In this document: positions 780 to 18,161 of the stretch, piece by piece
Numbering within the stretch: the first letter of the stretch is position 1
Layout: each line of letters begins with the position of its first letter
Virus record (IMG/VR): IMGVR_UViG_3300025018_000091
Length of the DNA stretch: 64,000 nucleotides
Direction: 5' to 3' (one strand)
Source: a virus
Taxonomy: Duplodnaviria > Caudoviricetes
Notes under the pieces: generated by a model
Seen by the model: only the letters and a program-made list of their open reading frames with translations
Databases searched by the model: none
Told to the model about the DNA's origin: nothing
Program-made: the position numbers and the translations under genes

Positions 780-793
780 ACAGTACATTTACT

Positions 794-3026: not shown

Positions 3027-3088
3027 TTGGTCCTGAAAGTAACAGGTCCCTTATCTAACTTTCTTGTTCGTCCAGATATGCTTTTGAA

Positions 3089-3496: not shown

Positions 3497-3543
3497 GTTT
3501 TCTCTCCTGCTAAAACCTTAGTTATTGGACCTTCAGACCCGAT

Positions 3544-3792: not shown

Positions 3793-3850
3793 GTGTGTAC
3801 CTCCTAGTTATGAATTCTCAAGTTTACACATTACACTCATCCATCATGGA

Positions 3851-4387: not shown

Positions 4388-4430
4388 GATTGACTCTCCA
4401 ATCCGTTATCGTTGCTGTACCTACTACCTT

Positions 4431-4451
4431 GCCCCCCTCACTCGATGGGGC
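4431..4451. repeat. GCCCC-N11-GGGGC hairpin repeat
   Basis: GCCCC CCTCACTCGAT GGGGC, 44 nt upstream of ATG 4387. Confidence 0.9.
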
Positions 4452-4456
4452 ACGGC

Positions 4457-4762
4457 TCAGTAGCCCTGACTCCATGACTTTCCAGCTTCCAGCCATACAC
4501 TCATAACCGCTTCCTTTGCTTCCTTCAGTGCAAGACCAGTAAGCTCACGCACAGCCTTAATCTGCGCAATCTTATCATTAGGATTGTTCAAACATACAAC
4601 CATTAAAGCCCTGACTTCAGGCAATGCAATCAGCTTTGACACATTGGCTTTGACTTCAAGAGCTTCCTCAGCTACGTTCAACTCCGAACGCAAACGCCCT
4701 TTGTCCATCGACAACGCTTCAATTCTATCAAGCAGTTTCTCAACAACGTCTTCTTCGTACAT
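4457..4762 (-). CDS. coiled-coil plus ribosomal protein bL12 (L7/L12) C-terminal-domain-like protein
   Basis: NDKIAQIKAVRELTGLALKEAKEAV matches the bL12 CTD signature K(I/V)..IK.VR..TGLGLKEAK..V; start MYEEDVV. Confidence 0.75.
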   Translation of the reverse strand: MYEEDVVEKLLDRIEALSMDKGRLRSELNVAEEALEVKANVSKLIALPEVRALMVVCLNNPNDKIAQIKAVRELTGLALKEAKEAVMSVWLEAGKSWSQGY

Positions 4763-4766
4763 GTGT

Positions 4767-5147
4767 TTATCCCTCGAAAAGTTTGATTTCTCGTACTTCG
4801 AACTTGTAAGTCCTATCGTGGTTTGACCATTCGCTTGCGGCTTGTTTGGCTTGATGTACCGAATCGTATACAGCCAGACCATTACCTTGGTATTTTGACG
4901 CAACTCGAATAACTAAACCATCCTTTGGATCAATCACAAGTACACCATACACCGGATCCTTTCCCATATGGAAGATTTGCTTATTGGTACTTGTCTGAAT
5001 AGGTGCATCTTCATCTCTCAGATTCTGACGAATCGACTTACGATACGATTCATCATCCTCCGGCAAACCAAGACCTTGATACCGAGAAATACCTTGCGAT
5101 TCCCCATACTTATCAAGTTCCTTACCTGTCAATGAATTGAGATCCAT
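4767..5147 (-). CDS. hypothetical protein
   Basis: 126-aa ORF in tight operon. Confidence 0.65.
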   Translation of the reverse strand: MDLNSLTGKELDKYGESQGISRYQGLGLPEDDESYRKSIRQNLRDEDAPIQTSTNKQIFHMGKDPVYGVLVIDPKDGLVIRVASKYQGNGLAVYDSVHQAKQAASEWSNHDRTYKFEVREIKLFEG

Positions 5148-5158
5148 GTGTTTGTCCT

Positions 5159-5524
5159 TTAGCCAGTATACATGATTGAAGCATCACTCATCGCTTGCGC
5201 AAATGAGTATGGTTTCCATGCAGATGATTCTGACCACATTCGTCGATAGGACCATTCTCCATCAGATGTGACTCGATAGATCGTATCGAAGAACTTTTCG
5301 AAATTGTCCGAAATGGTAACGGAACCATCATCCTGCTCTTCAATGAAAAGCAAGTCATCCACGAATGACTTATCATCAGGTTCATTCCAAACTTGACGCG
5401 CATTCTTTTTGACCGCTTCCGAAAACTCTTGTACTTGCTTGTTCATTGGTTTTTCTCCCAATTTCAGAAACTTGCTCACGAGCACGCCGCTGCAATGCTT
5501 CATGAACTTCTTGCCATGAACCAT
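5159..5524 (-). CDS. hypothetical protein
   Basis: 121-aa ORF in tight operon (alternative start 5446). Confidence 0.6.
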   Translation of the reverse strand: MVHGKKFMKHCSGVLVSKFLKLGEKPMNKQVQEFSEAVKKNARQVWNEPDDKSFVDDLLFIEEQDDGSVTISDNFEKFFDTIYRVTSDGEWSYRRMWSESSAWKPYSFAQAMSDASIMYTG

Positions 5525-5560
5525 GTTTTAAGACATACTCATATTCCATGCCGCCTCCTA

Positions 5561-5944
5561 TTAGATGGGTTGAATCTCTTCTCGGGCTTCCAGCTTACGC
5601 ACGTACTCCTTCTGCTCTTCAAAGGTGAGCTTTGATAGCTCATCCATGAATGTTCCAATACGTTCGTAAACCATGCCTTGCTCCAATTCCCATGGAGTTG
5701 TCATGTTCTCAGCAGCACAGAAGGCAAAACCCTCTCCATCAGGATCATCATTCATGTTCTTGATGGTCTGCTGAACGGACTTGTACGCCATCTCAGACGC
5801 AACTTCATGCAATCGATCATTGAAGTCCGTTTCCTCATCCACTTGACCAGTGTTACCACAATGATAACAGGCGTCTTGAACCATACGCCCATCCTCTTCA
5901 TAGTATTCCCAACCAGTCCCACCACACCTTAAACACTCACACAT
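5561..5944 (-). CDS. DnaJ-type CxxCxGxG zinc-finger protein
   Basis: CLRCGGTG...CYHCGNTGQV. Confidence 0.7.
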   Translation of the reverse strand: MCECLRCGGTGWEYYEEDGRMVQDACYHCGNTGQVDEETDFNDRLHEVASEMAYKSVQQTIKNMNDDPDGEGFAFCAAENMTTPWELEQGMVYERIGTFMDELSKLTFEEQKEYVRKLEAREEIQPI

Positions 5945-5975
5945 GATAATTTTCCCTTTTAGAGAAAAGTGAATG

Positions 5976-6173
5976 TTACTTTCTCTCTTCTCGCTCTTGA
6001 ACAAGAAGCGAAATTAGCTTTTGACGCGCAGCGTCAGATAAAGCCACTTGAAAGCCACCATTGAATGTCAATAGAACGCCCTTGTCCTTGTCATTCGACT
6101 CATTCAAAAGAACCCACATCTGTGAGCCTCCATAACATTCAATGAGATTCTCTCTACTTGGCTTTTTCCACAT
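5976..6173 (-). CDS. hypothetical protein
   Basis: 65-aa ORF, co-directional. Confidence 0.5.
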   Translation of the reverse strand: MWKKPSRENLIECYGGSQMWVLLNESNDKDKGVLLTFNGGFQVALSDAARQKLISLLVQEREERK

Positions 6174-6244
6174 GTCTCTTACCCTTTTAGAAGCGTTGCA
6201 AACTGGGAATGTTAAGACCGAATTGATCTAATCCTGTGAAGCAG

Positions 6245-6316
6245 TGGGTCCAGAGGGACTTGAACCCTCAACTCTCGGGTTAAAAGCCCGTTACTCTACC
6301 ATTGAGTTATGAACCC
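6245..6316 (-). tRNA. tRNA-Lys(UUU)
   Basis: GGGTTCA-TA-ACTC-AATGGTA-GAGT-A-ACGGG-CT-TTT-AA-CCCGA-GAGTT-GAGGG-TTCAAGT-CCCTC-TGGACCC-A canonical cloverleaf; CCA not encoded. Confidence 0.95.
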
Positions 6317-6507
6317 ATGCGGCTAAACCGCAACCGATCAAGCATATCAACCAATTCATATGGTCGAAAGTCTTTCAAGTCTATCCAACCACGTCTCTCT
6401 GATTCTTCTGGTATTGGACCAGAAAGAAGTTCATCTAACTCCTCATCAGTTGGATAGATAAAATTATCCTCAAGAATATTGCGTAATTGTCCCTTTCTAG
6501 TATTCAT
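6307..6507 (-). CDS. hypothetical protein
   Basis: Start MNTRKG; coupled to upstream ORF; 10-nt overlap with the tRNA 5' end. Confidence 0.5.
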   Translation of the reverse strand: MNTRKGQLRNILEDNFIYPTDEELDELLSGPIPEESERRGWIDLKDFRPYELVDMLDRLRFSRMGS

Positions 6508-6952
6508 TGTCGTAACGAGTTTCCATGTATTCCATGTAACGCTCGTCTTCATTCCAATGCTCGTAAGGGCGCATCATTCTTGTACCCAAATCCGAAAGCA
6601 ATTCCTCAATCACTTCAATTCTATCGTGATCGATTCGAGCTTTCTTATTCACCTCTTCGTAGAAGTCATCAATCGCCTTCTGACGAATGGCAGATAGTTC
6701 TTCCTTGGTGATATTCGGATTCTTCTCCTCAGCTTCACACTCAGCGTCATATGCCAAGTCTTGTGCTTGCTCAGCAAGATAATCCGCTTCGTCATGCCTC
6801 TCATCATCAGAGACCCATGACTTCTGCTCAATCTTCTGATGATATTCATTCCACTCAGAAGCGAGCTTGGACACCATCTCACGACGAATCGTACTTTTGA
6901 GAGTTTCCTCCCCAGTCTCGTCATACTCACCATCCATTACGAATCCACGCAT
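6497..6952 (-). CDS. acidic helical hypothetical protein
   Basis: Start moved to MRGFVM because the longer ORF overlaps the tRNA-like element at 6979-7068. Confidence 0.7.
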   Translation of the reverse strand: MRGFVMDGEYDETGEETLKSTIRREMVSKLASEWNEYHQKIEQKSWVSDDERHDEADYLAEQAQDLAYDAECEAEEKNPNITKEELSAIRQKAIDDFYEEVNKKARIDHDRIEVIEELLSDLGTRMMRPYEHWNEDERYMEYMETRYDNEY

Positions 6953-6978
6953 GACTTTTCTCTTGTTAGAGAATAGAT

Positions 6979-7068
6979 TGGTAGCAGAGGTTGGATTCGA
7001 ACCAACATAATAATACGTCCTCGGATCCAAGGATATGTGCCACCAGATCCAACCTGGTTAACTCTGCT
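6979..7068 (-). ncRNA. tRNA-like element with enlarged anticodon arm and encoded CCA
   Basis: Perfect AGCAGAG/CTCTGCT acceptor, A discriminator, CCA, GTTGG-TTCGAAT-CCAAC T-arm, ACCAG-GTTGGAT-CTGGT D-arm, TCCT-TGGATCCG-AGGA apex; 90 nt. Confidence 0.7.
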
Positions 7069-7079
7069 AAATAAGGACA

Positions 7080-7134
7080 GTTTTAGAACTTACCCCAGGT
7101 TCAAAGGTAGTTTTGGAACTTACCCTCAAGGTTC
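7080..7134. repeat. GTTTTAGAACTTACCCCAGGTTC repeat, two tandem copies (third at 10949-10971)
   Basis: 7080-7102 identical to 10949-10971; 7110-7134 is a variant. Confidence 0.8.
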
Positions 7135-7294
7135 AAGATTAAGTCCATGACATATAGATACAAATATGACCAAAAAATTAGGACGCTATTACTAAACGTA
7201 TCCATACAACCGTCCTACATGTATGGCGTTATGACGAATCTGTTTGAAGGGCTAAGGGCAGAGTCGATTCACTTCTGCCCCATAACCCTATGAT

Positions 7295-7678
7295 TCAGCT
7301 TGCGGGCTTGGGCTCGGGCTGGTCTGCCCAACGGCAAACTCCACCACCCTTTCCCTTCCCGATATGGAAGGGAGCACCCGAATCGCGCTCGCCAGCACGA
7401 TCCCGAATGTAAGCCTGGACCTTTTCGGTCAAGGTCTTGAAGTTCTCGGGCTGAACATTCATGCGCTGAACCGCCATGCTGGTGATGGCAGGCATATTCA
7501 GCTTTGCCCCAGGGTATTGGTCGAAGACTGCATTGACAGCTTCTCCCACAGCTTCAGCTTCCAATTCCCTTTCGGTCTGGAAACGAAGCAGATCCCCGGA
7601 GAACTTTCGCTCGGTTCCTTCGAGATCGATGGAACCATCGGGATTCCGAACACAGTAGCTTTGCAGATTGATGGTCGT
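7295..7678 (-). CDS. putative winged-helix-like nucleic-acid-binding protein; paralog of 10997-11356
   Basis: Shared CVRN.DGSI...EAV.AVFD...GA.L.MP.I.S.A and F..(G/S)KGKGGGV; fold is inferred. Confidence 0.6.
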   Translation of the reverse strand, partial: TTINLQSYCVRNPDGSIDLEGTERKFSGDLLRFQTERELEAEAVGEAVNAVFDQYPGAKLNMPAITSMAVQRMNVQPENFKTLTEKVQAYIRDRAGERDSGAPFHIGKGKGGGVCRWADQPEPKPAS

Positions 7679-7780
7679 CATGATGACACCTCCCACGGAA
7701 TGAATCCTTGGCGCTTATCATGCTGAGAATCGACACAATTCGATTGCCATTGACTCGCGCCGTGTTGTACTACTTGGCTT

Positions 7781-8109
7781 GCCCCCGTCACCTGATGGGG
7801 TACCGCTTTCCGTTCCCAGCGAAACAACATCGTTTCGCATCGAATCGCGGCAACCAACATCGCCTCCCTTGCCCCGGTCACCTGATGGGGTAGGTCAGTT
7901 CCGCTCACAGCGGAAAACAACAGGGTTACGTTCGCAGCGGAATCCGTCATTCCGTTCCCGCTGCAACGCGCCGTCCTACAAGGGCATAATTGCCCCCGTC
8001 ACCTGATGGGACAGGCATTCCGTTCCCAGCGGAACGTTGCCTCCCCGTCGCCGTTCGTTGCTGCGTCGCATCGAACACAACCTACCTTGCCCCGGTCACC
8101 TGATGGGGC
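7781..8109. repeat. tandem array of four hairpin repeats (7781, 7871, 7992, 8089) with associated TTCCG-N7-CGGAA hairpins
   Basis: Loops CGTCACCTGAT or GGTCACCTGAT; unit spacing 90, 121 and 97 nt. Confidence 0.9.
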
Positions 8110-8117
8110 AGGCATCC

Positions 8118-8324
8118 TGGCACGATCCTTGCTACGCACGTCGCGCGCGCGCAGATCATGAGGTATCCCGATCTTGGCACGCTTGCATATTGCGAGAATC
8201 ATGCCATAACCTTTTGACCCTACGTATAGCGGCACATAATGTCACGCCACATATGGTCAATCCCCGGCTTGCGGCTCGTCGTCGCATGGTGGCACGATTG
8301 TCGCACCTTGCAATCGGCGTGCCA
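8118..8324. promoter_or_regulatory. cluster of sigma54-type -24/-12 motifs
   Basis: + TGGCAC-GATCC-TTGCT (8118); - TGGCAT-GATTC-TCGCA (from 8206); opposed pair 8290-8324 (+ TGGCAC-GATTG-TCGCA, - TGGCAC-GCCGA-TTGCA). Confidence 0.65.
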
Positions 8325-8427
8325 GCGCTCGCCGAAAGCCAAAAAACCCATATCCCCAAAAGTCCAGAATTAGAGAGAATCTGGAACCCCTGGAAGGATA
8401 GAGGGGATGGGTAAATGCGGGCGGGGT

Positions 8428-8459
8428 AAAATTCCGCTCCCACTGGACGTGGGAGCGGA
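8428..8459 (-). terminator. probable intrinsic terminator
   Basis: 11-bp stem TCCGCTCCCAC/GTGGGAGCGGA then ATTTT on the minus strand. Confidence 0.55.
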
Positions 8460-8508
8460 TGCACAGAACGTGCTCTGAAAGCAGACATGGGGAATGAATG
8501 CTAAAAAC

Positions 8509-8703
8509 TTAGCTGATATGCAGCGTGTGAATCATTCGGCGCAATTGAATTCGTTCCATTCGCGCACGTCGAGCTTCACCGATTCCCCTTTCCTCGCACA
8601 AGGCTAGGAATTGGAACCCTCGTTCAGCTTCAATGCGCTCCCGACGTGCAGATTCACTCATTGATGAGAATGCAGAACCCCTTTCAGAAGTTTTCGAATC
8701 CAT
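8509..8703 (-). CDS. hypothetical protein
   Basis: 64-aa ORF with GGAG upstream. Confidence 0.5.
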   Translation of the reverse strand: MDSKTSERGSAFSSMSESARRERIEAERGFQFLALCEERGIGEARRARMERIQLRRMIHTLHIS

Positions 8704-8716
8704 CTGAATGGCTCCT

Positions 8717-9055
8717 TCAGATCATGGTCTTGAGTCGGAAAGCGTCAGCCCACAAGGCTTGCGTATCAGGATATGCACGATACCGCGAGCGACCGATTCT
8801 TTCGATGATTCCCTCATCTACCAACTTCTTGAGAGCGCCTCGAATGTCGCCCACTGAATAGAGCGAACCCAAACGCTTGTTCAAGTGTTCGGTCAAGTCA
8901 GAATCTTCCACGCCTTCATCGAATCGGCAAACTCCCCGAACGACCAAGGCACAACGATGCGCCATTCCATGGACAATTGTCGTTCGATCCGGTTCTGCGT
9001 AGACTTTGGTATCGTGTGTGTTGTAGGTTGTTTTCCTGCGAAACCTCATGTGCAT
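8717..9055 (-). CDS. winged helix-turn-helix DNA-binding protein
   Basis: SVGDIRGALKKLVDEGIIERIGRSRYRA fits a wHTH recognition helix plus wing. Confidence 0.7.
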   Translation of the reverse strand: MHMRFRRKTTYNTHDTKVYAEPDRTTIVHGMAHRCALVVRGVCRFDEGVEDSDLTEHLNKRLGSLYSVGDIRGALKKLVDEGIIERIGRSRYRAYPDTQALWADAFRLKTMI

Positions 9056-9086
9056 TCTCCTTGTTTCGAGTCAAGCTCTTTGGATG

Positions 9087-9503
9087 TTACAGTCTTGGCG
9101 TATACAAGAGCACGTTACTGCCCTCGTAAAACTCCTTCGCCTCTTTCAAACTACTACCCGTCAATTCGCGAACCTTCTTGATTGCGTTGATTCGATTGTC
9201 TGGAAACTCCTCTTTCAGAATCTGACGAATCTGATGATAAGAGGAATATCGCCTTTCGGAATAATCCCTCCCCATTACGAATAGACGCATGATCTCATTC
9301 TCCACTTGAGGCGAAAGATCCGGGGGAGAAAACGAATTCTTTTGCACAGGAGGAATCTTCGCGGTTTTCTTGAAGATCTCCAATTCCTGTTCAAGCTTCT
9401 TCAGATCATCCGTGGCAATAATCAGAGCACAATTCAAGGATGTATTCTCACGAATGAGATCATCCAAGTAAGACAATGGTACAGAAACTTTCACATCTTT
9501 CAT
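9087..9503 (-). CDS. coiled-coil plus bL12 CTD-like protein (second copy)
   Basis: DNRINAIKKVRELTGSSLKEAKEFYE. Confidence 0.75.
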   Translation of the reverse strand: MKDVKVSVPLSYLDDLIRENTSLNCALIIATDDLKKLEQELEIFKKTAKIPPVQKNSFSPPDLSPQVENEIMRLFVMGRDYSERRYSSYHQIRQILKEEFPDNRINAIKKVRELTGSSLKEAKEFYEGSNVLLYTPRL

Positions 9504-9644
9504 TCAATCCTCCCATCCATGACTTTTGTACTTCAATCTCGTAGGTGGAACCCGTCCATAGATCCATTCGTAGACTATTGCTAGACATACCAATGGACCT
9601 ATGACGAATATTGTGAGGAGAAGGTCAATTCTCTTGATCGTCAT
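9504..9644 (-). CDS. small membrane protein
   Basis: MTIKRIDLLLTIFVIGPLVCLAIVYEWIY single hydrophobic segment. Confidence 0.45.
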   Translation of the reverse strand: MTIKRIDLLLTIFVIGPLVCLAIVYEWIYGRVPPTRLKYKSHGWED

Positions 9645-9819
9645 GCTCTCCCCAATCTTCCTCCATCCATTCGTTCTTGTTCCTGGGCGCCTTGTACTTC
9701 TTGGAATTGATCCTTGCCCCTCTGAGAGCTTCCCCCTTCGCTTGAAGGATTGCAAGCGTATTGCGTTCACGCTTGCGGGGGATCGTCAGGGTGAAGTGGA
9801 TTCCCTTTTTGCTTCCCAT
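9625..9819 (-). CDS. small basic protein
   Basis: MGSKKGIHFTLTIPRKRERN..., fills gap in operon. Confidence 0.45.
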   Translation of the reverse strand: MGSKKGIHFTLTIPRKRERNTLAILQAKGEALRGARINSKKYKAPRNKNEWMEEDWGEHDDQEN

Positions 9820-9958
9820 TGTCTTCCTCATAGTGGGTCAGATTCTTATTGATCTTATTCCCACAATCTGAACAGGTGTATCCGTAATCTGTTTTGACCA
9901 TACGCCTCATGCTATCACACACAAGGCAATATGGTCGCCAATCAGGTGAATGTGTCAC
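9767..9958 (-). CDS. zinc-ribbon protein
   Basis: CLVC...CSDCGNKI. Confidence 0.6.
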   Translation of the reverse strand: MTHSPDWRPYCLVCDSMRRMVKTDYGYTCSDCGNKINKNLTHYEEDNGKQKGNPLHPDDPPQA

Positions 9959-9963
9959 GGGGT

Positions 9964-10149
9964 TTAGTTCAAGGTTGTGTTCGGATTCGTAGCTAGTTGC
10001 TTCTGAAGATTCGACATCTTCTCAAGAACCAACTCGTAACACTTCTTGAGCAAGTATGCTGCATCCTCATCCGTGGGAGGAGGAGTAATCGCACCAGTCT
10101 TGACCAGAATGCCAGCAACGATAACAGCAGCAGCCATGAGAGGATCCAT
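9964..10149 (-). CDS. hypothetical protein
   Basis: AACAACGGAG RBS and hairpin repeat 41 nt upstream. Confidence 0.65.
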   Translation of the reverse strand: MDPLMAAAVIVAGILVKTGAITPPPTDEDAAYLLKKCYELVLEKMSNLQKQLATNPNTTLN

Positions 10150-10189
10150 CGTTTTCTCCGTTGTTTGTTTGCGTTACACACATTGGTTT

Positions 10190-10210
10190 GCCCCGCTCAC
10201 TCGATGGGGC
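10190..10210. repeat. GCCCC-N11-GGGGC hairpin repeat
   Basis: GCCCC GCTCACTCGAT GGGGC. Confidence 0.9.
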
Positions 10211-10282
10211 ATCGTTATACAGTCTCAGCGGAACTCGTATGATGGCACACGGAATGCAACGTGCAAACGGTGTACCACTCAG

Positions 10283-10357
10283 AGGAATGGTCAGGAATCG
10301 AACCTGCGTTGCCACTTACTCCCCCAATCCTATCACAGATCGAGGAATATCCATTCC
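10283..10357 (-). ncRNA. tRNA-like element lacking a recognisable D-arm
   Basis: GGAATGG/CCATTCC acceptor, GCAGG-TTCGATT-CCTGA T-arm, one long internal stem TTCCTC..GGGGGA. Confidence 0.4.
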
Positions 10358-10375
10358 CGCCCTAGGGCTTAAGCT

Positions 10376-10579
10376 TCACTTCACAGATACAACCACACCG
10401 TCCTTAACTGTGACTGTGGCATACCACTTGTGTGGTTCGGGATAATGTGGACCTTCCACATATTCCGTCCCATTGTCCTTGGGCGTCCCAATACCGGGAG
10501 AATACAACCGCACTTGTTCTCCATTCTTGACCGCTTCCTTGAGAGCCCTTTTGGACTTGAAGTTTTTGGTGGTATACAT
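10376..10579 (-). CDS. small conserved-looking hypothetical phage protein
   Basis: NFKSKRALKEAV...VEGPHYPEPHKWYATVTVKDG. Confidence 0.75.
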   Translation of the reverse strand: MYTTKNFKSKRALKEAVKNGEQVRLYSPGIGTPKDNGTEYVEGPHYPEPHKWYATVTVKDGVVVSVK

Positions 10580-10583
10580 ATGG

Positions 10584-10790
10584 TCATTCTTCTCCGCAGC
10601 CGTAGTTGTAGCTTACTCCGTTGGGGCGAGAGATCAATCCCTCTTGCTCCAATGCCTTTTCGAGACGTGCCTTCTTGGAATTGAGAGCGCGCAATTGTCG
10701 CTTGGCATTGCGGATTGCATTCAACTCCCGTCGAATGGCACGAATCTCTTTTTTGGTATCGCTAATCTGTCCGTAAACTTCGCTCCACAT
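10584..10790 (-). CDS. coiled-coil hypothetical protein
   Basis: GGAGG RBS before MWSEV; heptad-like KKEIRAIRRELNAIR. Confidence 0.6.
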   Translation of the reverse strand: MWSEVYGQISDTKKEIRAIRRELNAIRNAKRQLRALNSKKARLEKALEQEGLISRPNGVSYNYGCGEE

Positions 10791-10840
10791 GTTCCGTTCC
10801 TCCATGTTTTGGGTGCATTCAAGGTTGCACCTAACCCGGC

Positions 10841-10905
10841 AGCCATGTGCAGGAGTCGAACCTACCTTACGCAACTTCCGTATAGCCGATCCTTGCTATA
10901 TGGAG
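10841..10905 (-). ncRNA. degenerate minimal tRNA-like element
   Basis: GTAGG-TTCGACT-CCTGC T-arm, TAGC-AAGGATCG-GCTA and TACG-GAAGTTG-CGTA hairpins, weak acceptor. Confidence 0.3.
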
Positions 10906-10996
10906 TTAACGTACGCTTGTCACCATCGACACAAGGCATAATAGGGCAGTTTTAGAACTTACCCCAGGTTCCATCCCACTCACCACCCAGAAAGTC

Positions 10997-11356
10997 TTAC
11001 TTCTTCTCGGGCACGTCCCGCAGACGCACCACACCGCCACCCTTTCCCTTCGAAACCTTGAATTCGTTGTTGGTTCGAATCCACAGACCCACCGCCTTCT
11101 GGGTCTCGACGAATTCGGAGGGACCGATTCCCATCAGACCACACGCTGCGGAACAGATGTGGGGCATGGGAAGGGTTGCGCCAAGGTGCGCATCGAACAC
11201 GGCGTGAACCGCTTCCGAGATTGCACCCAAGGATTCGGCTTCCTTCTGAGCCAATTCCAGCAATTGGTCCTCGACCTCGAAAAGCGTCGCTTGGACATTG
11301 ATGGAGCCATCGTCGTTGCGGACACAAGTGCTGCTGAGATTGCTGATCTTTTCCAT
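10997..11356 (-). CDS. paralog of 7295-7678
   Basis: CVRNDDGSI...EAVHAVFD...FKVSKGKGGGVVRL. Confidence 0.7.
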   Translation of the reverse strand: MEKISNLSSTCVRNDDGSINVQATLFEVEDQLLELAQKEAESLGAISEAVHAVFDAHLGATLPMPHICSAACGLMGIGPSEFVETQKAVGLWIRTNNEFKVSKGKGGGVVRLRDVPEKK

Positions 11357-11443
11357 GGCTTTTCTCCTTACACGTACAGTGGGGCAGTTTATTGACATTG
11401 TACCCCAGGTCGTTATTGTTTCGCTCGTTACATTGACTGGCTT

Positions 11444-11464
11444 GCCCCGGTCACCTGATGGGGC
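11444..11464. repeat. GCCCC-N11-GGGGC hairpin repeat
   Basis: GCCCC GGTCACCTGAT GGGGC. Confidence 0.9.
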
Positions 11465-11470
11465 AAGCTC

Positions 11471-12070
11471 TCATCCGTGAGAGAACGTTGACTTGCTTTG
11501 CTTCGCCTTGACACCGAATCCCAACTTCGATTGTCCAGGCTTGTTGGTCTTGTGAATCGCCATACGAGCAGGCTTCAGAATACGAGCAAGGGAATCGTCG
11601 CGATTCACGAATTCGTAATGAACCCCACGGTGAAACACTTCCCCGAAACAATCCGAGGATTGCTCGAACAAGCGCCGATCACACCACTCGCTCGCACGTT
11701 GGGGAAGGTCGAAGTTTTGCTTGACTTCCTTGCCCTTTTCGTCCAGAAGGATGTTTCCAGACCCGTCGCGAATGACGGCGGAAAAAGGCTTCTTGGACTG
11801 TGAAGGCTTCGATGCATTCTCGATTGACTCTTTCGCCTTCAAGAGATCCACGAGCATGATATGCCCCATGACCGCTTGTTTCAATTCAGTCAATGCGGGA
11901 GTCGGCATGACTTCCCCGGCGTCCACCTTTTGAAGGATTGGAGCCGTGACGTAGGAGACTTCACTGGTCAGAAGATACTCCCGATAAGCTTCGAAGAAAG
12001 CGATGGCGGAAACCTTCGCGCTATTCGCCTTCTGCAACAGACCTTTCGGTCCCATCTTGCGCTCAGCCAT
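11471..12070 (-). CDS. hypothetical protein
   Basis: 199-aa ORF, AACAACGGAG RBS, flanked on both sides by hairpin repeats. Confidence 0.8.
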   Translation of the reverse strand: MAERKMGPKGLLQKANSAKVSAIAFFEAYREYLLTSEVSYVTAPILQKVDAGEVMPTPALTELKQAVMGHIMLVDLLKAKESIENASKPSQSKKPFSAVIRDGSGNILLDEKGKEVKQNFDLPQRASEWCDRRLFEQSSDCFGEVFHRGVHYEFVNRDDSLARILKPARMAIHKTNKPGQSKLGFGVKAKQSKSTFSHG

Positions 12071-12109
12071 TGTTCTACTCCGTTGTTCGTTCGTTGTACC
12101 GCTTGGGTT

Positions 12110-12130
12110 GCCCCGGTCACCTGATGGGGC
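12110..12130. repeat. GCCCC-N11-GGGGC hairpin repeat
   Basis: GCCCC GGTCACCTGAT GGGGC, 40 nt upstream of ATG 12070. Confidence 0.9.
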
Positions 12131-12135
12131 AGGTC

Positions 12136-12318
12136 CTACTTGCTGCCGAACAGCATTCCGGTGATCATCACCATGGCGCTAGCGCCAACCGATCCCCAGA
12201 ATGAGATTCCGTTATGCAAGTATTGTGCCACTTGAGGAAACTGTGGCACAAGAAAGAAGTTTACCGCACAGAAGATGCAAGCCGCCAACATAACCCACAT
12301 GACAAGTAGCTTCCACAT
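12136..12318 (-). CDS. small two-TM membrane protein
   Basis: MWKLLVMWVMLAACIFCAVNFFLV...FWGSVGASAMVMITGMLF; AACAACGGAG RBS. Confidence 0.7.
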   Translation of the reverse strand: MWKLLVMWVMLAACIFCAVNFFLVPQFPQVAQYLHNGISFWGSVGASAMVMITGMLFGSK

Positions 12319-12357
12319 TGTGTTGTCTCCGTTGTTGTTCGCTACACCCATTGTCTT

Positions 12358-12494
12358 GCCCCGGTCACCTGATGGGGCAGCCCGTTCCGTTGACGGTGGA
12401 ATCGCTGTCGTTCCGTTCGCAGCAGAATCGCTGTTGTTCGCTGCGTGCTGTCCGTCGTAACGTTGCCTACCTTGCCCCGGTCACCTGATGGGGC
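12358..12494. repeat. two hairpin repeats (12358, 12474)
   Basis: Both GCCCC GGTCACCTGAT GGGGC. Confidence 0.9.
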
Positions 12495-12524
12495 TCGTGA
12501 CGAACGCGCGTCGCGCGTAGGGGA

Positions 12525-12794
12525 TTGGCACGCTTGCATATTGCGAGAATCATGCCAAACCCGTTTGACTATATGTTGCCTTATATATAATGTATGGTCA
12601 TTGAAAGTTGGCACGCTTGCAGATTGCAACGGGCATGCCAAGTCATATATTCCATATTTTATGGTTTTCCTTGGTTTTAGAGGTATGGCAAGTTCGGGCG
12701 GTATAAACTTTATTCCATGTTTTATGCAAACTTGGAATCGTCAAGGGAAGCGGTCATGTTGGCATGTTCGTCGCACCTTGCAAACCGCATGCCA
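12525..12794. promoter_or_regulatory. cluster of sigma54-type motifs (duplicate of the 8174-8324 module)
   Basis: 12525-12557 identical to 8174-8206; - TGGCAT-GCCCG-TTGCA (from 12640); opposed pair 12760-12794. Confidence 0.65.
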
Positions 12795-13136
12795 TATCCG
12801 GTAAAAAGACACGCGAAAACCCGGCACTCCTCCCCGAAGGGATAGAGCGCCAGGCTTCGCAACTTCAGTTCACATCGTTCACATCGTTCACTTACTTTTT
12901 TTATCGACTTATACATTTAATTCTACGCGGGCTCAACCCGTTCGCACAGTTTTCGCCACATTGACTCATAATCTGCTCTTTTCTCAGGGTTAGAGAACCT
13001 GCGGTATGGTCGTGTGATGCGCCAACGCACGAGCTTAGCGACTTGCCGATGGCTCATACCATCGGTGCGATGAGAGAATTGGCAAGCCTCAGAAGGTTCT
13101 TAGGCGTTGCCCCCTTCAGCTTGCCAACAGTCAGAT

Positions 13137-13490
13137 TCACAGGAACCAACCTTCCAACTTGCGCTCCAACGCAAGATTGTTCAATGCCTCGGTTGTGCGG
13201 AGAAGAGACTTCTTCTCCGCTGTGTACTCTTCTCCCACCGTGAAGTTGAGACCCTTCATCAGTGCAATATCGACTTCGCGCTGAGTTACCTCTTCGTGGA
13301 CCTGGCGCTCCTCGATCTTGCGCAACAGATCCTTGGCTTCAGTCGCACGTAGCTTTGCACCCAAGAGAACGTCTTGGGCTTTCTCGAATGCCTTGCGGGC
13401 GTTATCCGCAGACACACGAGCCAACTTCTCATCTTCGACGGCTTCGACACAAGCCGCCTTCAACCCTTCAAGTGTCGCCTTGAGTTGCAT
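13137..13490 (-). CDS. coiled-coil hypothetical protein
   Basis: GGAG RBS; helical A/E/K-rich sequence. Confidence 0.7.
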   Translation of the reverse strand: MQLKATLEGLKAACVEAVEDEKLARVSADNARKAFEKAQDVLLGAKLRATEAKDLLRKIEERQVHEEVTQREVDIALMKGLNFTVGEEYTAEKKSLLRTTEALNNLALERKLEGWFL

Positions 13491-13776
13491 ATCGTTTCTC
13501 CGTTTCATGCACACTGGTTTGCCCGGTCTTGAGAACCAAGGCAGAGAGAAACTCCCTGCCCGTAATCAAGCCTTCGAGGTATTGATCAACCTCAAAGTGT
13601 CCCGCATAATGCAGGACAGCCCGTTCGACATGAGGCTTGAGAATCTCAGCCTCAGTCTTATAATAGAGGGAGTGCGGGTCGCACTTATCCCAGGAAGGAG
13701 TTTCCCTAATCAGAGTCAAAGCGGCTTCCGACGCCTTGATCCGAGCCTCCTCCAGAATACCAGCCAATGAACCCAT
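13468..13776 (-). CDS. hypothetical protein
   Basis: AACAACGGAGG RBS before MGSLAG; hairpin repeat 31 nt upstream. Confidence 0.6.
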   Translation of the reverse strand: MGSLAGILEEARIKASEAALTLIRETPSWDKCDPHSLYYKTEAEILKPHVERAVLHYAGHFEVDQYLEGLITGREFLSALVLKTGQTSVHETEKRYATQGDT

Positions 13777-13806
13777 TGTCTTTCCTCCGTTGTTGACCAC
13801 TATCTT

Positions 13807-14073
13807 GCCCCAGTTACTCGATGGGGCGATTTTACAGTCAGAACAGAAACCCAACAATTGCGTGGGCAGTCAGCCAGCAAAAGGCTAGCGTGACTCCCAC
13901 GCCTAAAACAACACCCAAAGGCGATTCAGACTCAGACATCATTGCACCTTTCACATACCGGCTTGCCCCAGTTACTCGATGGGGCAAACTCATTCCGTCC
14001 GCAGCGTAACCATCATCGTCTCCGCTGCGTCGCATCGAACACAACCTACCTTGCCCCGCTTACTTGATGGGGC
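13807..14073. repeat. three hairpin repeats (13807, 13965, 14053)
   Basis: Loops AGTTACTCGAT (twice) and GCTTACTTGAT. Confidence 0.9.
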
Positions 14074-14183
14074 GCGACACGCTTTTATGGGCGGTCTGTT
14101 GTTGGCTTAACTCTTGCTCCTTGCAATTAGCATGCCATGATGGGTGCGGGCGATTTGGGGCATCGCCGCGCGCCCATCTTGGC

Positions 14184-14305
14184 ACGGCACGTTTGCACAT
14201 TGCGACGACCATGCCACATGCACAGGACAGCACAATTATTGTGTGAGCGTATTATTGTGTGAGTGGAATGACTTGGCACGCTTGCTTATTGCAAGACACG
14301 CGCCA
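14184..14305 (-). promoter_or_regulatory. two sigma54-type motifs
   Basis: - TGGCAT-GGTCG-TCGCA (from 14216) and TGGCGC-GTGTC-TTGCA (from 14305), each within a 33-bp quasi-palindrome. Confidence 0.6.
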
Positions 14306-14321
14306 ACAGGACGACAGACGC

Positions 14322-14352
14322 AAAAAAAATCCGCTTCCCGGTGGGAAGCGGA
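14322..14352 (-). terminator. intrinsic terminator
   Basis: TCCGCTTCCC/GGGAAGCGGA stem then a T run, 30 nt after the stop of 14382-15296. Confidence 0.85.
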
Positions 14353-14381
14353 CGAAGGGGCGGAACCCGCCCCTGCTGTTG

Positions 14382-15296
14382 TTATTCCAGGTATTCCAGG
14401 ATTTCCGTCGTGTCGTCGGCGGCAGATTCCGCCAAGAGGCGAGCAAGCTCAGCCTCCCGATCCGCCTCAGACACATTCGCCAACGGAGCGGATTCAACCG
14501 GGGCGGAATTCTTCTCGGCTTCGTTCGCCAGCGCCTTGCGGCACCGCGCACGCCGCTCGTCCATCGTGGACGGATCCAGTGTGAGCGGGCGAAACGTTTC
14601 GCCCGGCTCGTTGACTGGCACACCGCTTGCATTGACTTCCGCGCCACCGAACGTTCCGTTATGGAACGCAATGACCGTTTCCGTCGTAAGCTCGCTGTTT
14701 CCAGCGTCACGGTAACGACGCGCAAGCGCGCCGACATCGCAGGATTCCACCTCGGACAGAATCTGCTCTGCGAGGTACAGCTTGACCGACGCCATCGCCC
14801 GCTCCGTGATCGCCATCTCTGCCAGCAATTCCTTTTCTTCCATGTTTCCCGCCAAGTGAGACTTGCGTTCCAGTGTCGCTGCAAGTTTTCCGTGCTCGTC
14901 GGATTCCTCCACCATGGCACTGGCTCGTGCAATTCCCGAGCCAATCATCTTGCGAATCTCATGATCCGCACCAGCCGCACCTGGCACGAATCCTGCAACG
15001 CCAGCGTAGCGCTCACCGCGCCACACCACGAATCCGCTGGCATCGGATCCGGTGTTGCCCTTGATAGGGGCGGTTCCGCTGGGGGCGGAAACGGTCGCCG
15101 TGGGCGTTGCAGTGGGGGCGGACTTCGCGGACTTCGCGGCTTTCGCAGATTCCTTGGCTGCCCGCTTGGCAGCCTTTTCCGCCGCTTTCGCGGCTTTCGC
15201 GGCTTCCGCGGCTTCCAGGTTCTCATCGTGTTGCGCCATATGCTTGGCTTGCGCAGCGAGCATTGCGTTCAGGGCGGAAAGGGCGACGTTCGACAT
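14382..15296 (-). CDS. hypothetical protein with Ala/Lys-rich histone-H1-like N-terminal segment
   Basis: AAEAAKAAKAAEKAAKRAAKESAKAAKSAKSAP; hairpin repeat upstream and terminator downstream. Confidence 0.75.
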   Translation of the reverse strand: MSNVALSALNAMLAAQAKHMAQHDENLEAAEAAKAAKAAEKAAKRAAKESAKAAKSAKSAPTATPTATVSAPSGTAPIKGNTGSDASGFVVWRGERYAGVAGFVPGAAGADHEIRKMIGSGIARASAMVEESDEHGKLAATLERKSHLAGNMEEKELLAEMAITERAMASVKLYLAEQILSEVESCDVGALARRYRDAGNSELTTETVIAFHNGTFGGAEVNASGVPVNEPGETFRPLTLDPSTMDERRARCRKALANEAEKNSAPVESAPLANVSEADREAELARLLAESAADDTTEILEYLE

Positions 15297-15346
15297 GTTT
15301 TTTTCTTTCGGCTGGGAGAAAAAATTTTTGGTGTACTAGCTGGCTT

Positions 15347-15367
15347 ACCCCCCTTACTTGATGGGGC
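15347..15367. repeat. hairpin repeat, copy 15 (variant)
   Basis: ACCCC CCTTACTTGAT GGGGC, 51 nt upstream of ATG 15296. Confidence 0.8.
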
Positions 15368-15502
15368 AGGGCTGTTCCGTTCGGGACAAAATCCGCTGGG
15401 GACGGATCGCCCAGCTGGGACGGGGGTTGTGGTACGTGCTGTGTAATAGTGCGAGAAGTATGCCAAGGTGGTAGAAGGTGGCAGGATGTAGGACAAACCG
15501 GC

Positions 15503-15860
15503 TTGGCATGCTTGCTATTAGCGAGAATCATGCCACAATAATCCTACTATTCTAGGTTTTACCTGGCATGAAGTATCATTCTACTACTCCAGACTTTACT
15601 GATTAGGATGATACTCCAGACTTTTCCTGCAATGTAGTATCGTGCAATGATTCCGTTTTTTCTTTCTTTGTCGCGGAAAGAATAAAAAGAATAAAAAGAA
15701 GATAATTGGTAATAAGAAAAGAAAAAGAAAAGTTTGGAAGATGTAGTTGGCATAGCTCGTTTTGCTATATTGCAATTGGCATACCAACTACAGTATCCTA
15801 CCTTGGGGCTGATGTAGGATAAAAAGGTGGAGCGGGTGTCGCGTTGGCACGCTTTTTGCC
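15503..15860. promoter_or_regulatory. sigma54-type motifs at the block boundary
   Basis: - TGGCAT-GATTC-TCGCT (from 15535); - TGGTAT-GCCAA-TTGCA (about 15786); + TGGCAC-GCTTT-TTGCC (15845). Confidence 0.55.
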
Positions 15861-16186
15861 ACCCAAATAGGGGTCAAATTACTAAATCCATACTCTCCTT
15901 CCCCCTTCAACCCTAAATCCACATATCATAACATACTCTAATGTATTCTATAGTCATTCATAATACCTAATTTGAACTTCTGAAAGAGCCCCTAATAGGG
16001 TTATAGCAATATTATAAACACCCATAACCACTCTTTACCACTATTTGACACTCCAAACCACCCAATTTGAATTTCTAATTTCTTTCTATCTTCTTATCGC
16101 ATTATATTGGCTGTTTTTTGAGGCGATATATGTATGGTCAAAAAATAGGATATATAATAAGGCGGTATATATGGGAGGAGAGGCAA

Positions 16187-16834
16187 ATGAGAAAAGTGAT
16201 ATCTATATTAATGATGGTGATTGTAGTTTTATTTGTATCAGTGATGAGGGGATGCAAGTGTGAGGATAGTAATGAGGTTACGTATCATTATTTGACACAG
16301 GAGAGGGTAGATGTAGAGACAAAGGTAATGAAGGTATATACAGATTTATTCTTTACGGATATGGAGAGGCATATAATATGGAGGGCGATGGACAGGTGGA
16401 ATTTAGTAATGAATGGATATGTAAGAATGGAGGATGCAGGTGGATTTACGATGGAGATAGAGAAGATAAAGGAAGCTGAGGCAGGGGGAGCATATATAGT
16501 GATGAGATTAGGAGTAATGAGTCCATTAATAAAGAATGAGCCAGGGACAATGACATTAGGATTTACGGATGAGATAGGAGGGAAGTATTTATATTTGGTA
16601 CCTGACTATATAGGGGAGGAGAATTTATATGGGGTAGTATTACATGAGTTTGGACATTTAATGGGTGCTAGGCATACGAAGAATGGATTAATGAGGTTGG
16701 GATATAGTATAGGTAAGGAAGTATGTATAGATAAGGAGACAGTGGAGCAGATAGAGGGATATGATTGGAGGAGGATGAATTATTGTGTAAGGGATAATGC
16801 GGACAAGTTATTTGAGATAGAATTTAGTCCATAA
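16187..16834 (+). CDS. matrixin-like (metzincin) zinc metalloprotease, exported or lipoprotein
   Basis: HEFGHLMGARH matches HExxHxxGxxH, followed by GLM Met-turn; hydrophobic N-terminus ending MRGC; GGAGG RBS. Confidence 0.85.
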   Translation: MRKVISILMMVIVVLFVSVMRGCKCEDSNEVTYHYLTQERVDVETKVMKVYTDLFFTDMERHIIWRAMDRWNLVMNGYVRMEDAGGFTMEIEKIKEAEAGGAYIVMRLGVMSPLIKNEPGTMTLGFTDEIGGKYLYLVPDYIGEENLYGVVLHEFGHLMGARHTKNGLMRLGYSIGKEVCIDKETVEQIEGYDWRRMNYCVRDNADKLFEIEFSP

Positions 16835-16871
16835 GAAGCGGTGGGTTGGGATAGAGTATGTTGATTTTAAA

Positions 16872-17768
16872 TTAACCTTGGAATGGCCAAGGGAGGCAGA
16901 TATAATTATTTAGTCCCCATACGATATAGGATCTGGTAGCGGTAGTGATAGTGCTTTTAGCGGCTCTGGAGGTACCCATCCATTGAGCGACAGTACTGAA
17001 ACCTTTCCAACCATTAGCGGTTGGTTGGGTATTATTTCTGGCATGTGGTACAGGTGATATAGAATCTTTACTAGAGTAGGGATTAACGGACAGACCTATA
17101 GGAAAAGCGTCGCCACCGGAGGATGAAGCGATAATAGAACCTGGTATAGAACCCCAGAAGGATCCTGTCCAACCTTTTGAGGTTTCATTAGTTGCTAAGT
17201 CACCTTCTTCTGCCAATCTATATACATTATAAGCAAATACGGTAGCGCAGATATAAGGGTCTGGATCATCTGGATGATAGGTACCTTCAGCCATTGGATC
17301 ATATATGATTAGACCTCCGGCATCAGTATTTTGCCAACCGAACAGGACCCAACCATAAGGGGCGGCGTCATCTACGCAAGAGTGCCAGACGGAGCTACCG
17401 CTAATAAAGAGGTCGGAGGCGTCGGTACATAGGTATTTTTCATCTGTAGCGGTAGCTCTAGCGGAGGAAGTACCTCCTGTGAACAGGGCGCCTTTAGAAT
17501 ACAATACATCCCATCTATCAGTAGTTGATGTACCACCCATGGAGAAGCACCATTCAGCGCCATCGTCGGGTCGTCTGAGTACCATCCAAGAGTTAGCATT
17601 AGTGAGACTAGCAACAGAGGAGATATTATCGCCATCACCACCTGTAGTTCCGTTACCGGATCTTGGTACAGACCAGCCACAGGATACGAGTAGGACTTTA
17701 TGACCATAGAGCCATTCAGCGCCGCTGTTACTACTTATAGAGTTATTTACATCAAATTGCCAAGTCAT
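16872..17768 (-). CDS. putative virion structural protein; paralog of 61233-62189
   Basis: Shared TWQ(F/Y)DVN start, W.V..S...DG.D...(S/R)W.VL segment and C-terminal ..PW. Confidence 0.65.
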   Translation of the reverse strand: MTWQFDVNNSISSNSGAEWLYGHKVLLVSCGWSVPRSGNGTTGGDGDNISSVASLTNANSWMVLRRPDDGAEWCFSMGGTSTTDRWDVLYSKGALFTGGTSSARATATDEKYLCTDASDLFISGSSVWHSCVDDAAPYGWVLFGWQNTDAGGLIIYDPMAEGTYHPDDPDPYICATVFAYNVYRLAEEGDLATNETSKGWTGSFWGSIPGSIIASSSGGDAFPIGLSVNPYSSKDSISPVPHARNNTQPTANGWKGFSTVAQWMGTSRAAKSTITTATRSYIVWGLNNYICLPWPFQG

Positions 17769-17801
17769 GAAGATATACCTTTTTATGATATATAACTTAG
17801 T

Positions 17802-18161
17802 TTATAGGAAGGTTAATATAGTTTTAAGTTTATCTGGAGCGGAAGAGGGGGTAATATTGATGGCGGAATTGAGTTTAGTAATGATATTGATTACATATTT
17901 TTCATTATTTTTAAATTTACTGATAGTGGTAGAATTTTCTAGGTGGTCTACGAGAATTTCGTAGCGGGAGTTATCCAAGTGGACTTTAAAGGAGATGAAG
18001 TTTTGAGGGATTTCTGTATCTTTTGGGTCATCGTTATCGAATTTTATTAATTTAGAATTAACTAAGATATAATCGCAGTGAGTACATTCCAGGGGATTTT
18101 CATAGAATTGGTTTAAGAATTCGAATTTAGTCAGGGTATTATTACAATAAAGGCAAATCAT
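17802..18161 (-). CDS. CxxC / FS-tail family protein
   Basis: MICLYC...KLKTILTFL*. Confidence 0.85.
   Translation of the reverse strand: MICLYCNNTLTKFEFLNQFYENPLECTHCDYILVNSKLIKFDNDDPKDTEIPQNFISFKVHLDNSRYEILVDHLENSTTISKFKNNEKYVINIITKLNSAINITPSSAPDKLKTILTFL

Follow-up and report, generated by a model that had tools for sequence, protein, structure and literature searches.

Sigma-54-type sites, often arranged as mirror dyads, mark the operon heads of a putative early block in a huge phage

Results

A GC-rich block carries clustered sigma-54-type sites

The stretch of DNA analysed here, 64,000 nucleotides long and called the window below, belongs to a virus of the Caudoviricetes (Duplodnaviria; IMG/VR record IMGVR_UViG_3300025018_000091) and is part of a 444,127-bp contig. 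Its first 16 kb contain operon heads in which copies of a 16-bp motif are clustered. This motif corresponds, by its sequence, to the -24/-12 consensus of promoters that the sigma-54 factor (RpoN) recognizes. The source DNA is nearly complete in one aquifer metagenome and partial in ten other runs from aquifers, groundwater and cold springs.

Two parts of different composition make up the window. Bases 1-16000 have a GC content of ~43-54% and carry small genes on the minus strand. Bases 16000-64000 (~26-36% GC) code for an RF2-like release factor, collagen-like fibre proteins, a thymidylate synthase, a GMP-reductase-type enzyme and arrays of small paralogues. A chimeric assembly of the two parts was considered and excluded. 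Because an independent Logan contig crosses the junction and related phages repeat the same GC jump, the change in composition is not an assembly artefact.

Read along the minus strand, the GC-rich part shows five heads, at ~15860-15450, 14305-14103, 12794-12524, 10277-10243 and 8324-8118. The elements follow one another in a fixed order. A terminator, present in three heads, precedes one to four sigma-54-type elements, then comes a hairpin leader and finally the genes, with AACGGAG-type ribosome sites. The heads starting at 14305, 12794 and 8324 each lie directly after the intrinsic terminator of the preceding unit, as judged by folding energy and z-score. The leaders contain large hairpin cassettes of the form CTTGCCCC-N11-GGGGC, accompanied in most heads by small TTCCG-N7-CGGAA hairpins. 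This layout agrees with an earlier reading of the same DNA, made from the letters alone (hereafter the sequence-only reading), that had placed the motifs in an early region: the sites do head operons of small genes. The features are listed in Table 1.

Table 1 Sigma-54-type sites, terminators and leaders of the GC-rich block, in minus-strand order
Feature	Position	Strand	Description
Sigma-54-type site TGGCACGCTTTTTGCC	15845-15860	+	Divergence-point site of 19.0 bits, directed at the metallopeptidase-like gene 16118-16834 (rightward); predicted start ~15871
Sigma-54-type site TGGTATGCCAATTGCA	15771-15786	-	18.2 bits; most upstream site of head 1; mirror half 3 bases too long, spacing wrong
Type I element (asymmetric dyad)	15502-15535	-	Correct half 15520-15535; predicted start ~15509
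Single sigma-54-type site TGGCATACTTCTCGCA	15450-15465	-	Last site before the leader of the 304-residue gene; predicted start ~15439
First gene of unit 1	14382-15296	-	304 residues, no family; holds two antisense sigma-54-like sites
Double-hairpin intrinsic terminator, U8 tract	14321-14374	-	Closes unit 1; terminator-like on the plus strand too; -37.5 kcal/mol, z -4.6
Type I element, weak copy TGGCGCGTGTCTTGCA	14272-14305	-	First site of head 2; half 14290-14305 reads TGGCGC, 12.5 bits
Type I element	14183-14216	-	Correct half 14201-14216, 17.5 bits; predicted start ~14190
Mirror dyad, degenerate plus half	14103-14137	both	20.7 bits for minus half 14122-14137, against 13.1 bits for plus half 14103-14118; predicted minus start ~14111
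Leader of unit 2	13962-14075	-	Pair of large CTTGCCCC-N11-GGGGC hairpin cassettes plus a single small TTCCG-N7-CGGAA hairpin
Intrinsic terminator, long GC hairpin and U-rich tail	12804-12861	-	Directly upstream of head 3; -37.2 kcal/mol, z -4.5
Type II mirror dyad, two correct halves	12760-12794	both	Minus half 12779-12794, predicted start ~12768, geneward; plus half 12760-12775, predicted start ~12786, toward the terminator
Type I element	12607-12640	-	Correct half 12625-12640, 20.4 bits; predicted start ~12614
Type I element	12524-12557	-	Same as 8173-8206 from TTGGCA on; correct half 12542-12557; predicted start ~12531
Leader of unit 3	12355-12496	-	Two large hairpins around two small ones; followed by a 65-residue membrane-protein gene and the 199-residue marker gene
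Sense-strand sigma-54-type site	12215-12230	-	Within the small membrane-protein gene; 19.9 bits; start of the 199-residue gene 145 nt further on
Degenerate mirror dyad, fifth internal head	10243-10277	both	17.8 bits for the minus half 10262-10277, predicted start ~10251; hairpin 10187-10212 and gene 9964-10149 come next
Two intrinsic terminator hairpins	8341-8459	-	Close the preceding unit; 8426-8459, z -4.4; 8341-8400 weaker, z -1.5
Type II mirror dyad, two correct halves	8290-8324	both	19.9 and 17.4 bits; predicted starts ~8298 (minus) and ~8316 (plus)
Type I element	8173-8206	-	Correct half 8191-8206; predicted start ~8180
Single site TGGCACGATCCTTGCT	8118-8133	+	20.6 bits; faces against the genes; not explained by a pure promoter model
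Gene-free leader array	7778-8111	-	Seven hairpins (four large, three small) downstream of head 4

The motif agrees with the sigma-54 consensus

The sequence-only reading had noted about a dozen matches to TGGCA(C/T)-N5-T(T/C)GC(A/T). Search with the strict pattern TGGCAY-N5-TYGCW gave 14 matches, all of them within 8118-15535, where 0.22 +/- 0.46 are expected from 100 dinucleotide shuffles. A position weight matrix (PWM) was then built from the clade of related phages described below, with a cut-off of at least 16 bits for strong sites and 200 Markov simulations as background. It detected 17 strong sites in bases 1-16000 against 0.125 expected (simulation maximum 3), which bears out the clustering proposed earlier. 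No strong site was found in the AT-rich bases 16001-64000.

Expectation maximization, seeded with GG-N10-GC alone and run with a capped site number on ten loci (~190 kb), converged on ~200 sites. The resulting motif is T(0.93)GGC(0.85)A(0.85)Y(0.99)R(0.88)-N4-T(0.85)T(0.93)GC-W(0.96), i.e. TGGCAYR-N4-TTGCW. All eight informative positions outside the seed match the sigma-54 consensus, so that the assignment made in the sequence-only reading extends to positions that the search did not impose. Barrios et al. (1999) reportedly gave this consensus as TGGCACG-N4-TTGCW. The TCGC variant observed in the window is that of the E. coli glnAp2 promoter. To our knowledge, no other DNA-binding factor has this specificity. 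By sequence, the motif is the sigma-54 -24/-12 consensus, published elsewhere as TGGCAC-N5-TTGCT/W (PMC12316311). GG and GC are spaced by exactly 10 bp in all 17 strong sites of the window and in the ~200 sites of the ten loci, the reverse halves of the type I elements described below not being counted.

Sigma-70 readings of the same sequences were tried and rejected. An extended -10 reading of TGGCATGAT finds the last T of the hexamer in just 10 of 14 sites and leaves the invariant GGCA and TGC boxes unexplained. The type I elements can be read on the plus strand as TTGGCA-N17-AATCAT. This reading scores 9/12, points away from the genes, and its -10 part is not kept in the copies of two relatives, L002 and L004. 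On the gene strand, no convincing sigma-70-type promoter was found within the heads.

Two spacers beside type I elements, at 8214-8242 and 12565-12593 (+), contain a sigma-70-like TTGACY-N17-TAATGT that faces against the genes. The counterpart in L002 reads TTGACG-N17-TATAGT. The inverted TTGACC...GGTCAA pair at 8214-8270 could form a symmetric two-way promoter.

Single sites, mirror dyads and asymmetric elements

Besides single sites, the heads contain paired sites of two kinds. The six quasi-palindromes of the sequence-only reading are real and measure 34 bp each; they constitute repeat family D5 and are called type I. Two of them are identical from 8174 to 8206 and from 12525 to 12557. As had been described, the minus-strand half has the correct GG-N10-GC spacing, and the plus-strand half, TGGCAC-GC-TTGCA, is wrongly spaced. 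The 35-bp elements, family D8 or type II, carry correctly spaced motifs on both strands. To the two copies already noticed (8290-8324 and 12760-12794) we add degenerate third and fourth copies at 14103-14137 and 10243-10277.

The general mirror dyad spans 35 bp and reads TGGCAY-N5-TTGCA N3 TGCAA-N5-RTGCCA. The type II form is TGGCACG CCGA TTGCA AGG TGCGA CAATC GTGCCA and the type I form is TGGCATG ATTC TCGCA ATA TGCAA GC GTGCCA. Alignment of the two shows that type I corresponds to type II minus 3 bp in the spacer of one half. The loss breaks the GG-N10-GC spacing on the strand that faces away from the genes. An RNA or DNA hairpin as the selected feature of the dyad was rejected, the spacers of the two halves not being complementary.

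Twelve of the 17 strong sites are co-directed with the genes. A thirteenth, at 15845-15860, faces the rightward gene across the divergence point; this gene is syntenic at the block boundary in relatives. Of the remaining four strong sites, two are the reverse halves of dyads; one, 8118-8133, has the wrong direction; and one, 14616-14631, is antisense and intragenic. Several sites were missing from the earlier account or only touched by it: 15771-15786 (-), 15845-15860 (+), 10262-10277 (-) and the intragenic 12215-12230 (-), 14616-14631 (+) and 14982-14997 (+). The last two lie within the 304-residue gene and score 19.5 and 12.6 bits, respectively. Site 12215-12230 could represent an internal promoter or have arisen by chance.

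The sites are conserved in related huge phages

The 199-residue early protein (11471-12070) was used as a marker. It has 197 homologues, many of them on contigs of 350-511 kb, and the loci around twelve homologues were compared. The motif, the 35-bp dyad and the GC-rich block are common to nine related loci, down to 36% marker identity, with 12-27 PWM matches per 20 kb against 0.2-0.8 in shuffles. Two more distant relatives without the motif are also without the GC-rich block. The relatives repeat the order terminator, dyad, box, gene. Strict matches are concentrated in one zone of 4-5 kb in each of two whole relatives (16 of 19 and 8 of 12), and the reversed-pattern control gives 0. Comparison of the window with its closest relative, L002 (86% marker identity), shows that the boxes are retained while the spacers are altered. 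This argues for selection on the boxes.

Several heads of the 498-kb relative L006 hold one dyad only between the terminator and the gene box, without sigma-70-like hexamers. Over the clade, 70 single sites are co-oriented with the genes and 42 are opposed, and there are 37 dyads. Pairs of opposed sites show an offset of 19-20 bp in 21 cases, any other offset being found at most twice. Four tandem copies, 18-27 bp apart, are present in L004.

Dyads occur in unrelated phages

The strict 35-bp dyad was found in 30 IMG/VR stretches, compared with 0 for the reversed-pattern control. In many of these stretches, extra sites are clustered around the dyad. Three of the dyad contigs are complete genomes of 41-44 kb without the clade marker protein, and two of these three small phages have no protein in common with any open reading frame (ORF) of window bases 1-16900 (E 1e-3). 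In these two, G007 (IMGVR_UViG_3300029258_003236; 20238-20731) and G009 (IMGVR_UViG_3300033154_000500; 17516-18140), 9-10 sites each are confined to one region of ~0.5 kb between divergent gene arms. Those of G007 are mostly offset-19 dyads, 42-51 bp apart. From its position, the placement of dyads between divergent arms makes sense for a bidirectional promoter. Since phages as different as these have the motif in common, a conserved protein of the host is indicated rather than a phage factor.

The position between gene arms is also a frequent place for a replication origin. The sites might thus be iterons or similar repeats of an origin, a partition site or a packaging or entry signal. Short sites repeated both ways round, with the four tandem copies of L004, would suit such a role, and many dyad matches lie near contig ends; contig ends at repeats, however, also arise from assembly. 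The window and its relatives spread their sites over four or five operon heads across 4-8 kb, several directly after terminators. In the window itself, the five heads extend over 7.7 kb with genes between them, unlike an iteron origin, whose repeats cluster at a single place next to an initiator gene and an AT-rich unwinding element, whereas the small-phage sites do share one locus. No adjacent replication or packaging gene was recognized, and the unrelated phages would need a common initiator, of which none was found. We consider a role of this kind very improbable.

Another explanation is that the sites are operators of some other phage or host DNA-binding protein. The likeness to sigma-54 promoters would then be coincidental, and the real promoters would be something else, such as the CCCATC-type box ahead of each gene or the weak sigma-70-like sites of the spacers. 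Strict mirror geometry with an offset of 19-20 bp is typical of oligomeric regulators, and tandem and inverted arrays look like operator clusters. The boxes of a half-site form a near direct repeat T(G/T)GCA, 11 bp apart. Conservation of the wrongly spaced type I half fits as well, as does the sigma-70-like TTGACY-N17-TAATGT of two spacers. A candidate binder is encoded at 8717-9055, where our reading of the sequence suggests a winged-helix-like protein of no named family; we rejected it as the dyad binder since it was not found in the 20-kb loci of most dyad-bearing relatives, the closest one, L002, included. The operator explanation is confronted with the eight non-seeded informative positions, which all agree with the sigma-54 consensus. 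Moreover, single asymmetric 16-mers, which a symmetric dimer would not recognize, outnumber the dyads (112 against 37), and unrelated complete small phages have the dyad but no protein in common with the region. Nor is the plus-strand reading TTGGCA-N17-AATCAT conserved in L002 or L004. Operators of another protein therefore appear unlikely to us.

Polymerase, sigma factor and host

Four related huge-phage genomes, two of them estimated complete, were searched with Pfam models, using known genomes as positive controls. No match to RNA polymerase beta or beta-prime subunits or to T7-type RNA polymerase was found in the four genomes, the T7-type model having matched no control genome either. No sigma-54 domain was detected in them. 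Strongly diverged polymerases or activators could escape such models. A 214-residue protein of the sigma-70 family is encoded once in three of the four genomes. The sequence-only reading had proposed looking for a phage-encoded enhancer-binding protein or sigma-54; the search, run on these four relatives, detected neither. Intrinsic terminators, together with the lack of an RNA polymerase match in the relatives, point to transcription by the host polymerase. As none of the four relatives has a detectable gene for sigma-54 or its activator, the factor would have to be the host's.

A Myxococcota host had been put forward on the basis of sigma-54 use. No evidence for it was found. The only hint at a host comes from a 17.7-kb contig of a related phage, L022 (DAONDQ010000057.1), binned in a metagenome-assembled genome (MAG) of Candidatus Cloacimonadota that has rpoN. 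This binning weakly suggests Cloacimonadota as host. Of the 20 strict sites counted in the 3.2-Mb MAG, 9 are on this contig.

Leaders and other features of the block

A second control element, much commoner than the sigma-54-type sites, is located ~35-45 nt ahead of most early genes. Its form in the window is the hairpin CTTGCCCC-N11-GGGGC, with 15 copies in 232-15369. Relatives (L002, L004, L006, L010, L012, L013, L014, L016 and L022) have lineage-specific boxes in its place, GCTCCCATTCAC, TCCCATCATGAAAC, CCCAGCGACTAAG or CCCATCGCCAAACG, with a common CCCA core and 18-43 copies per 20 kb. This pre-gene element may serve a different sigma factor as promoter, or it may act as a signal for RNA processing or stability. 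The sequence-only reading had seen possible enhancer sites in the hairpin palindromes. This idea was not supported: the hairpins belong to the leaders, downstream of the motifs, some of them precede genes far from any site (232, 4431), and the CCCA-core boxes replace them in relatives.

At third codon positions, GC content drops from 0.57 in twelve genes of the early block to 0.16 in eight from the AT-rich part. It is possible that early genes are tuned to the tRNA pool of the host and that later genes depend on the phage's own large tRNA set. Search of the window against Rfam identified one tRNA only.

Two early proteins, encoded at 9087-9503 and 4457-4903 (-), end with the C-terminal domain of ribosomal protein L7/L12 (Pfam E ~1.5e-7), the N-terminal part being absent. 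A homologue is called in L002. These proteins may be decoys for translation GTPases. In the AT-rich part, 28512-29603 (-) encodes a full-length bacterial-type peptide chain release factor with PCRF and RF-1 domains. It shows ~40% identity to bacterial RF2 and 37% to the copies of Lak megaphages.

The early protein 3851-4387 (-) has homologues in cultured phages only in the terminal-repeat (host-takeover) regions of two SPO1-like phages of Bacillus, Mater and P59, with weak matches in Streptomyces phages besides. As far as sequence homology goes, this fits an early, host-takeover role of the block. Other searches gave no match: BLASTN of 8001-16000 and tblastn of a 601-residue ORF and of the 199-residue early protein against phage records, a scan of viral contigs with the 304-residue protein and a separate scan with the exact hairpin sequence. 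Finally, ~270 nt at 12862-13136, between the stop codon of gene 13137-13493 and the terminator 12804-12861, show no convincing ORF and may hold a small RNA.

Discussion

A predicted set of host sigma-54 promoters

What was computed directly is the motif with its statistics and layout, and its conservation in the clade and in unrelated phages. From these we infer sigma-54 binding, transcription starts, early timing and the involvement of an activator. The sites are probably bound by the sigma-54 holoenzyme of the host. That they also function as host sigma-54-dependent promoters, heading the first units of an early, host-takeover-like block, is the explanation we favour over any other, and about as likely as not.

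In the proposed mechanism, host RNA polymerase with sigma-54 would bind the sites and transcribe the early units. Sigma-54 transcription starts ~12 nt past the GC. The GC boxes of a dyad are only 6-7 bp apart, and the two predicted starts would therefore cross over. From this geometry, the leftward transcript is predicted to begin 18 bp to the left of the rightward one, so that the two RNAs would diverge. A dyad would then serve as a compact two-way promoter, type I being a one-way derivative that keeps the gene-directed promoter. Opening of a sigma-54 promoter requires an AAA+ enhancer-binding protein, usually sited 80-150 bp upstream. Activation here could come from an enhancer-binding protein of the host, possibly acting from solution, or from a phage factor that escaped recognition. 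According to a recent preprint, one phage AAA+ protein is similar to sigma-54 activators but does not have the GAFTGA motif.

Several observations weigh against a promoter function. The activator ATPase domain (PF00158) gave no match in the four related huge-phage genomes, the controls being positive, or in three small dyad-bearing phages, G007 and G009 included. No consensus for IHF was found in the heads, and no upstream repeat or activator site common to the heads was seen. The bias in orientation is moderate only: the gene-directed half scores higher in 24 of the 37 clade dyads, and 42 clade singles face against the genes compared with 70 that are co-oriented. In the window, the strong site 8118-8133 faces the wrong way and two sites are antisense within the 304-residue gene. 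The fixed 19-bp mirror geometry and the tandem dyads 42-51 bp apart look more like a binding array than like something a promoter needs. Last, between the window and L002 the wrongly spaced half of type I (ATATTGCAAGCGTGCCAA) is better conserved than the spacer of the correct half, which the promoter model does not explain.

Part of this would be accounted for if the host holoenzyme bound the sites without productive transcription. The sites could be a decoy that drains sigma-54 from its host functions (stress, motility, pili, RNA repair), or could hold parked closed complexes that insulate units after terminators. An activator would not be needed, and none was found in seven phage genomes. 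Mirror dyads would bind either way round, and 42 singles oppose the genes. The dyads 42-51 bp apart in a small phage would suit such binding too, as would the share of strict sites carried by the L022 contig (9 of the 20 in its 3.2-Mb MAG): with that share, replicating phage DNA would outnumber the sites of the host. Closed complexes of the sigma-54 holoenzyme are established to be stable and silent without activator (PMC4591121). For a decoy, however, position is irrelevant, yet the sites are at operon heads, several of them directly after terminators. The window's strong sites favour gene direction (13 of 17), the dyad is the sole candidate promoter in several heads of L006, and the asymmetry of type I suggests selection for one direction. 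Non-productive binding seems to us slightly less plausible still than operators of another protein.

The holoenzyme might also be employed in a manner undescribed in bacteria, by unrelated phages from 41 kb to 500 kb without a detected activator. Closed complexes could be fired by a non-AAA+ phage factor or by a state of the injected DNA. Alternatively, the phage could capture the sigma-54 pool of the host and thereby shut down sigma-54-dependent host responses, the 19-bp dyad being the functional unit. Such a use is rather doubtful, if somewhat less so than either of the foregoing alternatives.

Comparison with known systems

Like the bacterial sigma-54 promoters glnAp2, pspA and nifH, the sites have GG and GC 10 bp apart and follow the flanking consensus at every informative position. 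Most of them likewise lie between genes, upstream of predicted transcription units. In contrast to the bacterial promoters, they are located in a phage genome, in arrays of up to four sites per head, often as mirror dyads with a fixed 19-bp offset. They further differ in showing neither an upstream activator site nor an IHF site, in having no activator gene that the searches could detect, and in the preference for T over C at -21; their binding and starts are predicted.

The Pseudomonas phage YuA has a sigma-54-like promoter (Ceyssens et al. 2008), whose mapped start was seen again by ONT-cappable-seq (PMC10914365). YuA, too, is a lytic phage without its own RNA polymerase that offers a sigma-54-type promoter to the host enzyme. 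It has a single such region, beside sigma-70 and phage-specific promoters, whereas the window has ~17 strong sites in one region, with dyads, conservation throughout the clade and similar arrays in unrelated viral contigs. YuA is the only published phage precedent that we found. Arrays, mirror dyads and clade-wide use at early heads appear to be undescribed. Intragenic sigma-54 sites have a parallel in E. coli (PMC4591121).

The early operon of T7, with its promoters A1, A2 and A3 and its RNase III punctuation, and the terminal-repeat takeover module of SPO1 offer a functional analogy only. In all of these, tandem promoters for the host polymerase precede small takeover genes and structured RNA separates genes, as is predicted for the window. 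The likeness to SPO1 extends to protein 3851-4387, homologous to terminal-repeat-region proteins of SPO1-like Bacillus phages. The T7 and SPO1 promoters are of the sigma-70 or sigma-A type, unlike the sigma-54-class motif found here.

Warman et al. (2021) reportedly described sigma-70 promoters that are symmetric and bidirectional, their divergent starts lying 18 bp apart. The predicted arrangement in the dyad is similar, two promoters sharing one short symmetric stretch with starts on opposite strands 18 bp apart. In the sigma-70 case the -10 element, being nearly palindromic, provides the symmetry. A sigma-54 element has no symmetry of its own, and the dyad must therefore have been selected.

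Significance for huge phages and their hosts

In bacteria, sigma-54 transcription is regarded as a side route, tightly gated and dependent on an activator. Textbook phages begin infection with sigma-70 promoters or with their own polymerases. If the reading of the sites as host sigma-54 promoters is true, it would be common for phages, among them a clade of 350-510 kb and unrelated small ones, to tie the onset of infection to a signalling ATPase of the host, or to disarm the pathway. The sigma-54 reading also makes a prediction about hosts, which would require rpoN. Most Cyanobacteria would be excluded on this basis. The same requirement would rule out most Actinomycetota (PMC12316311). Finally, the geometry of the dyad predicts a new kind of promoter, which would be compact, bidirectional and enhancer-dependent.

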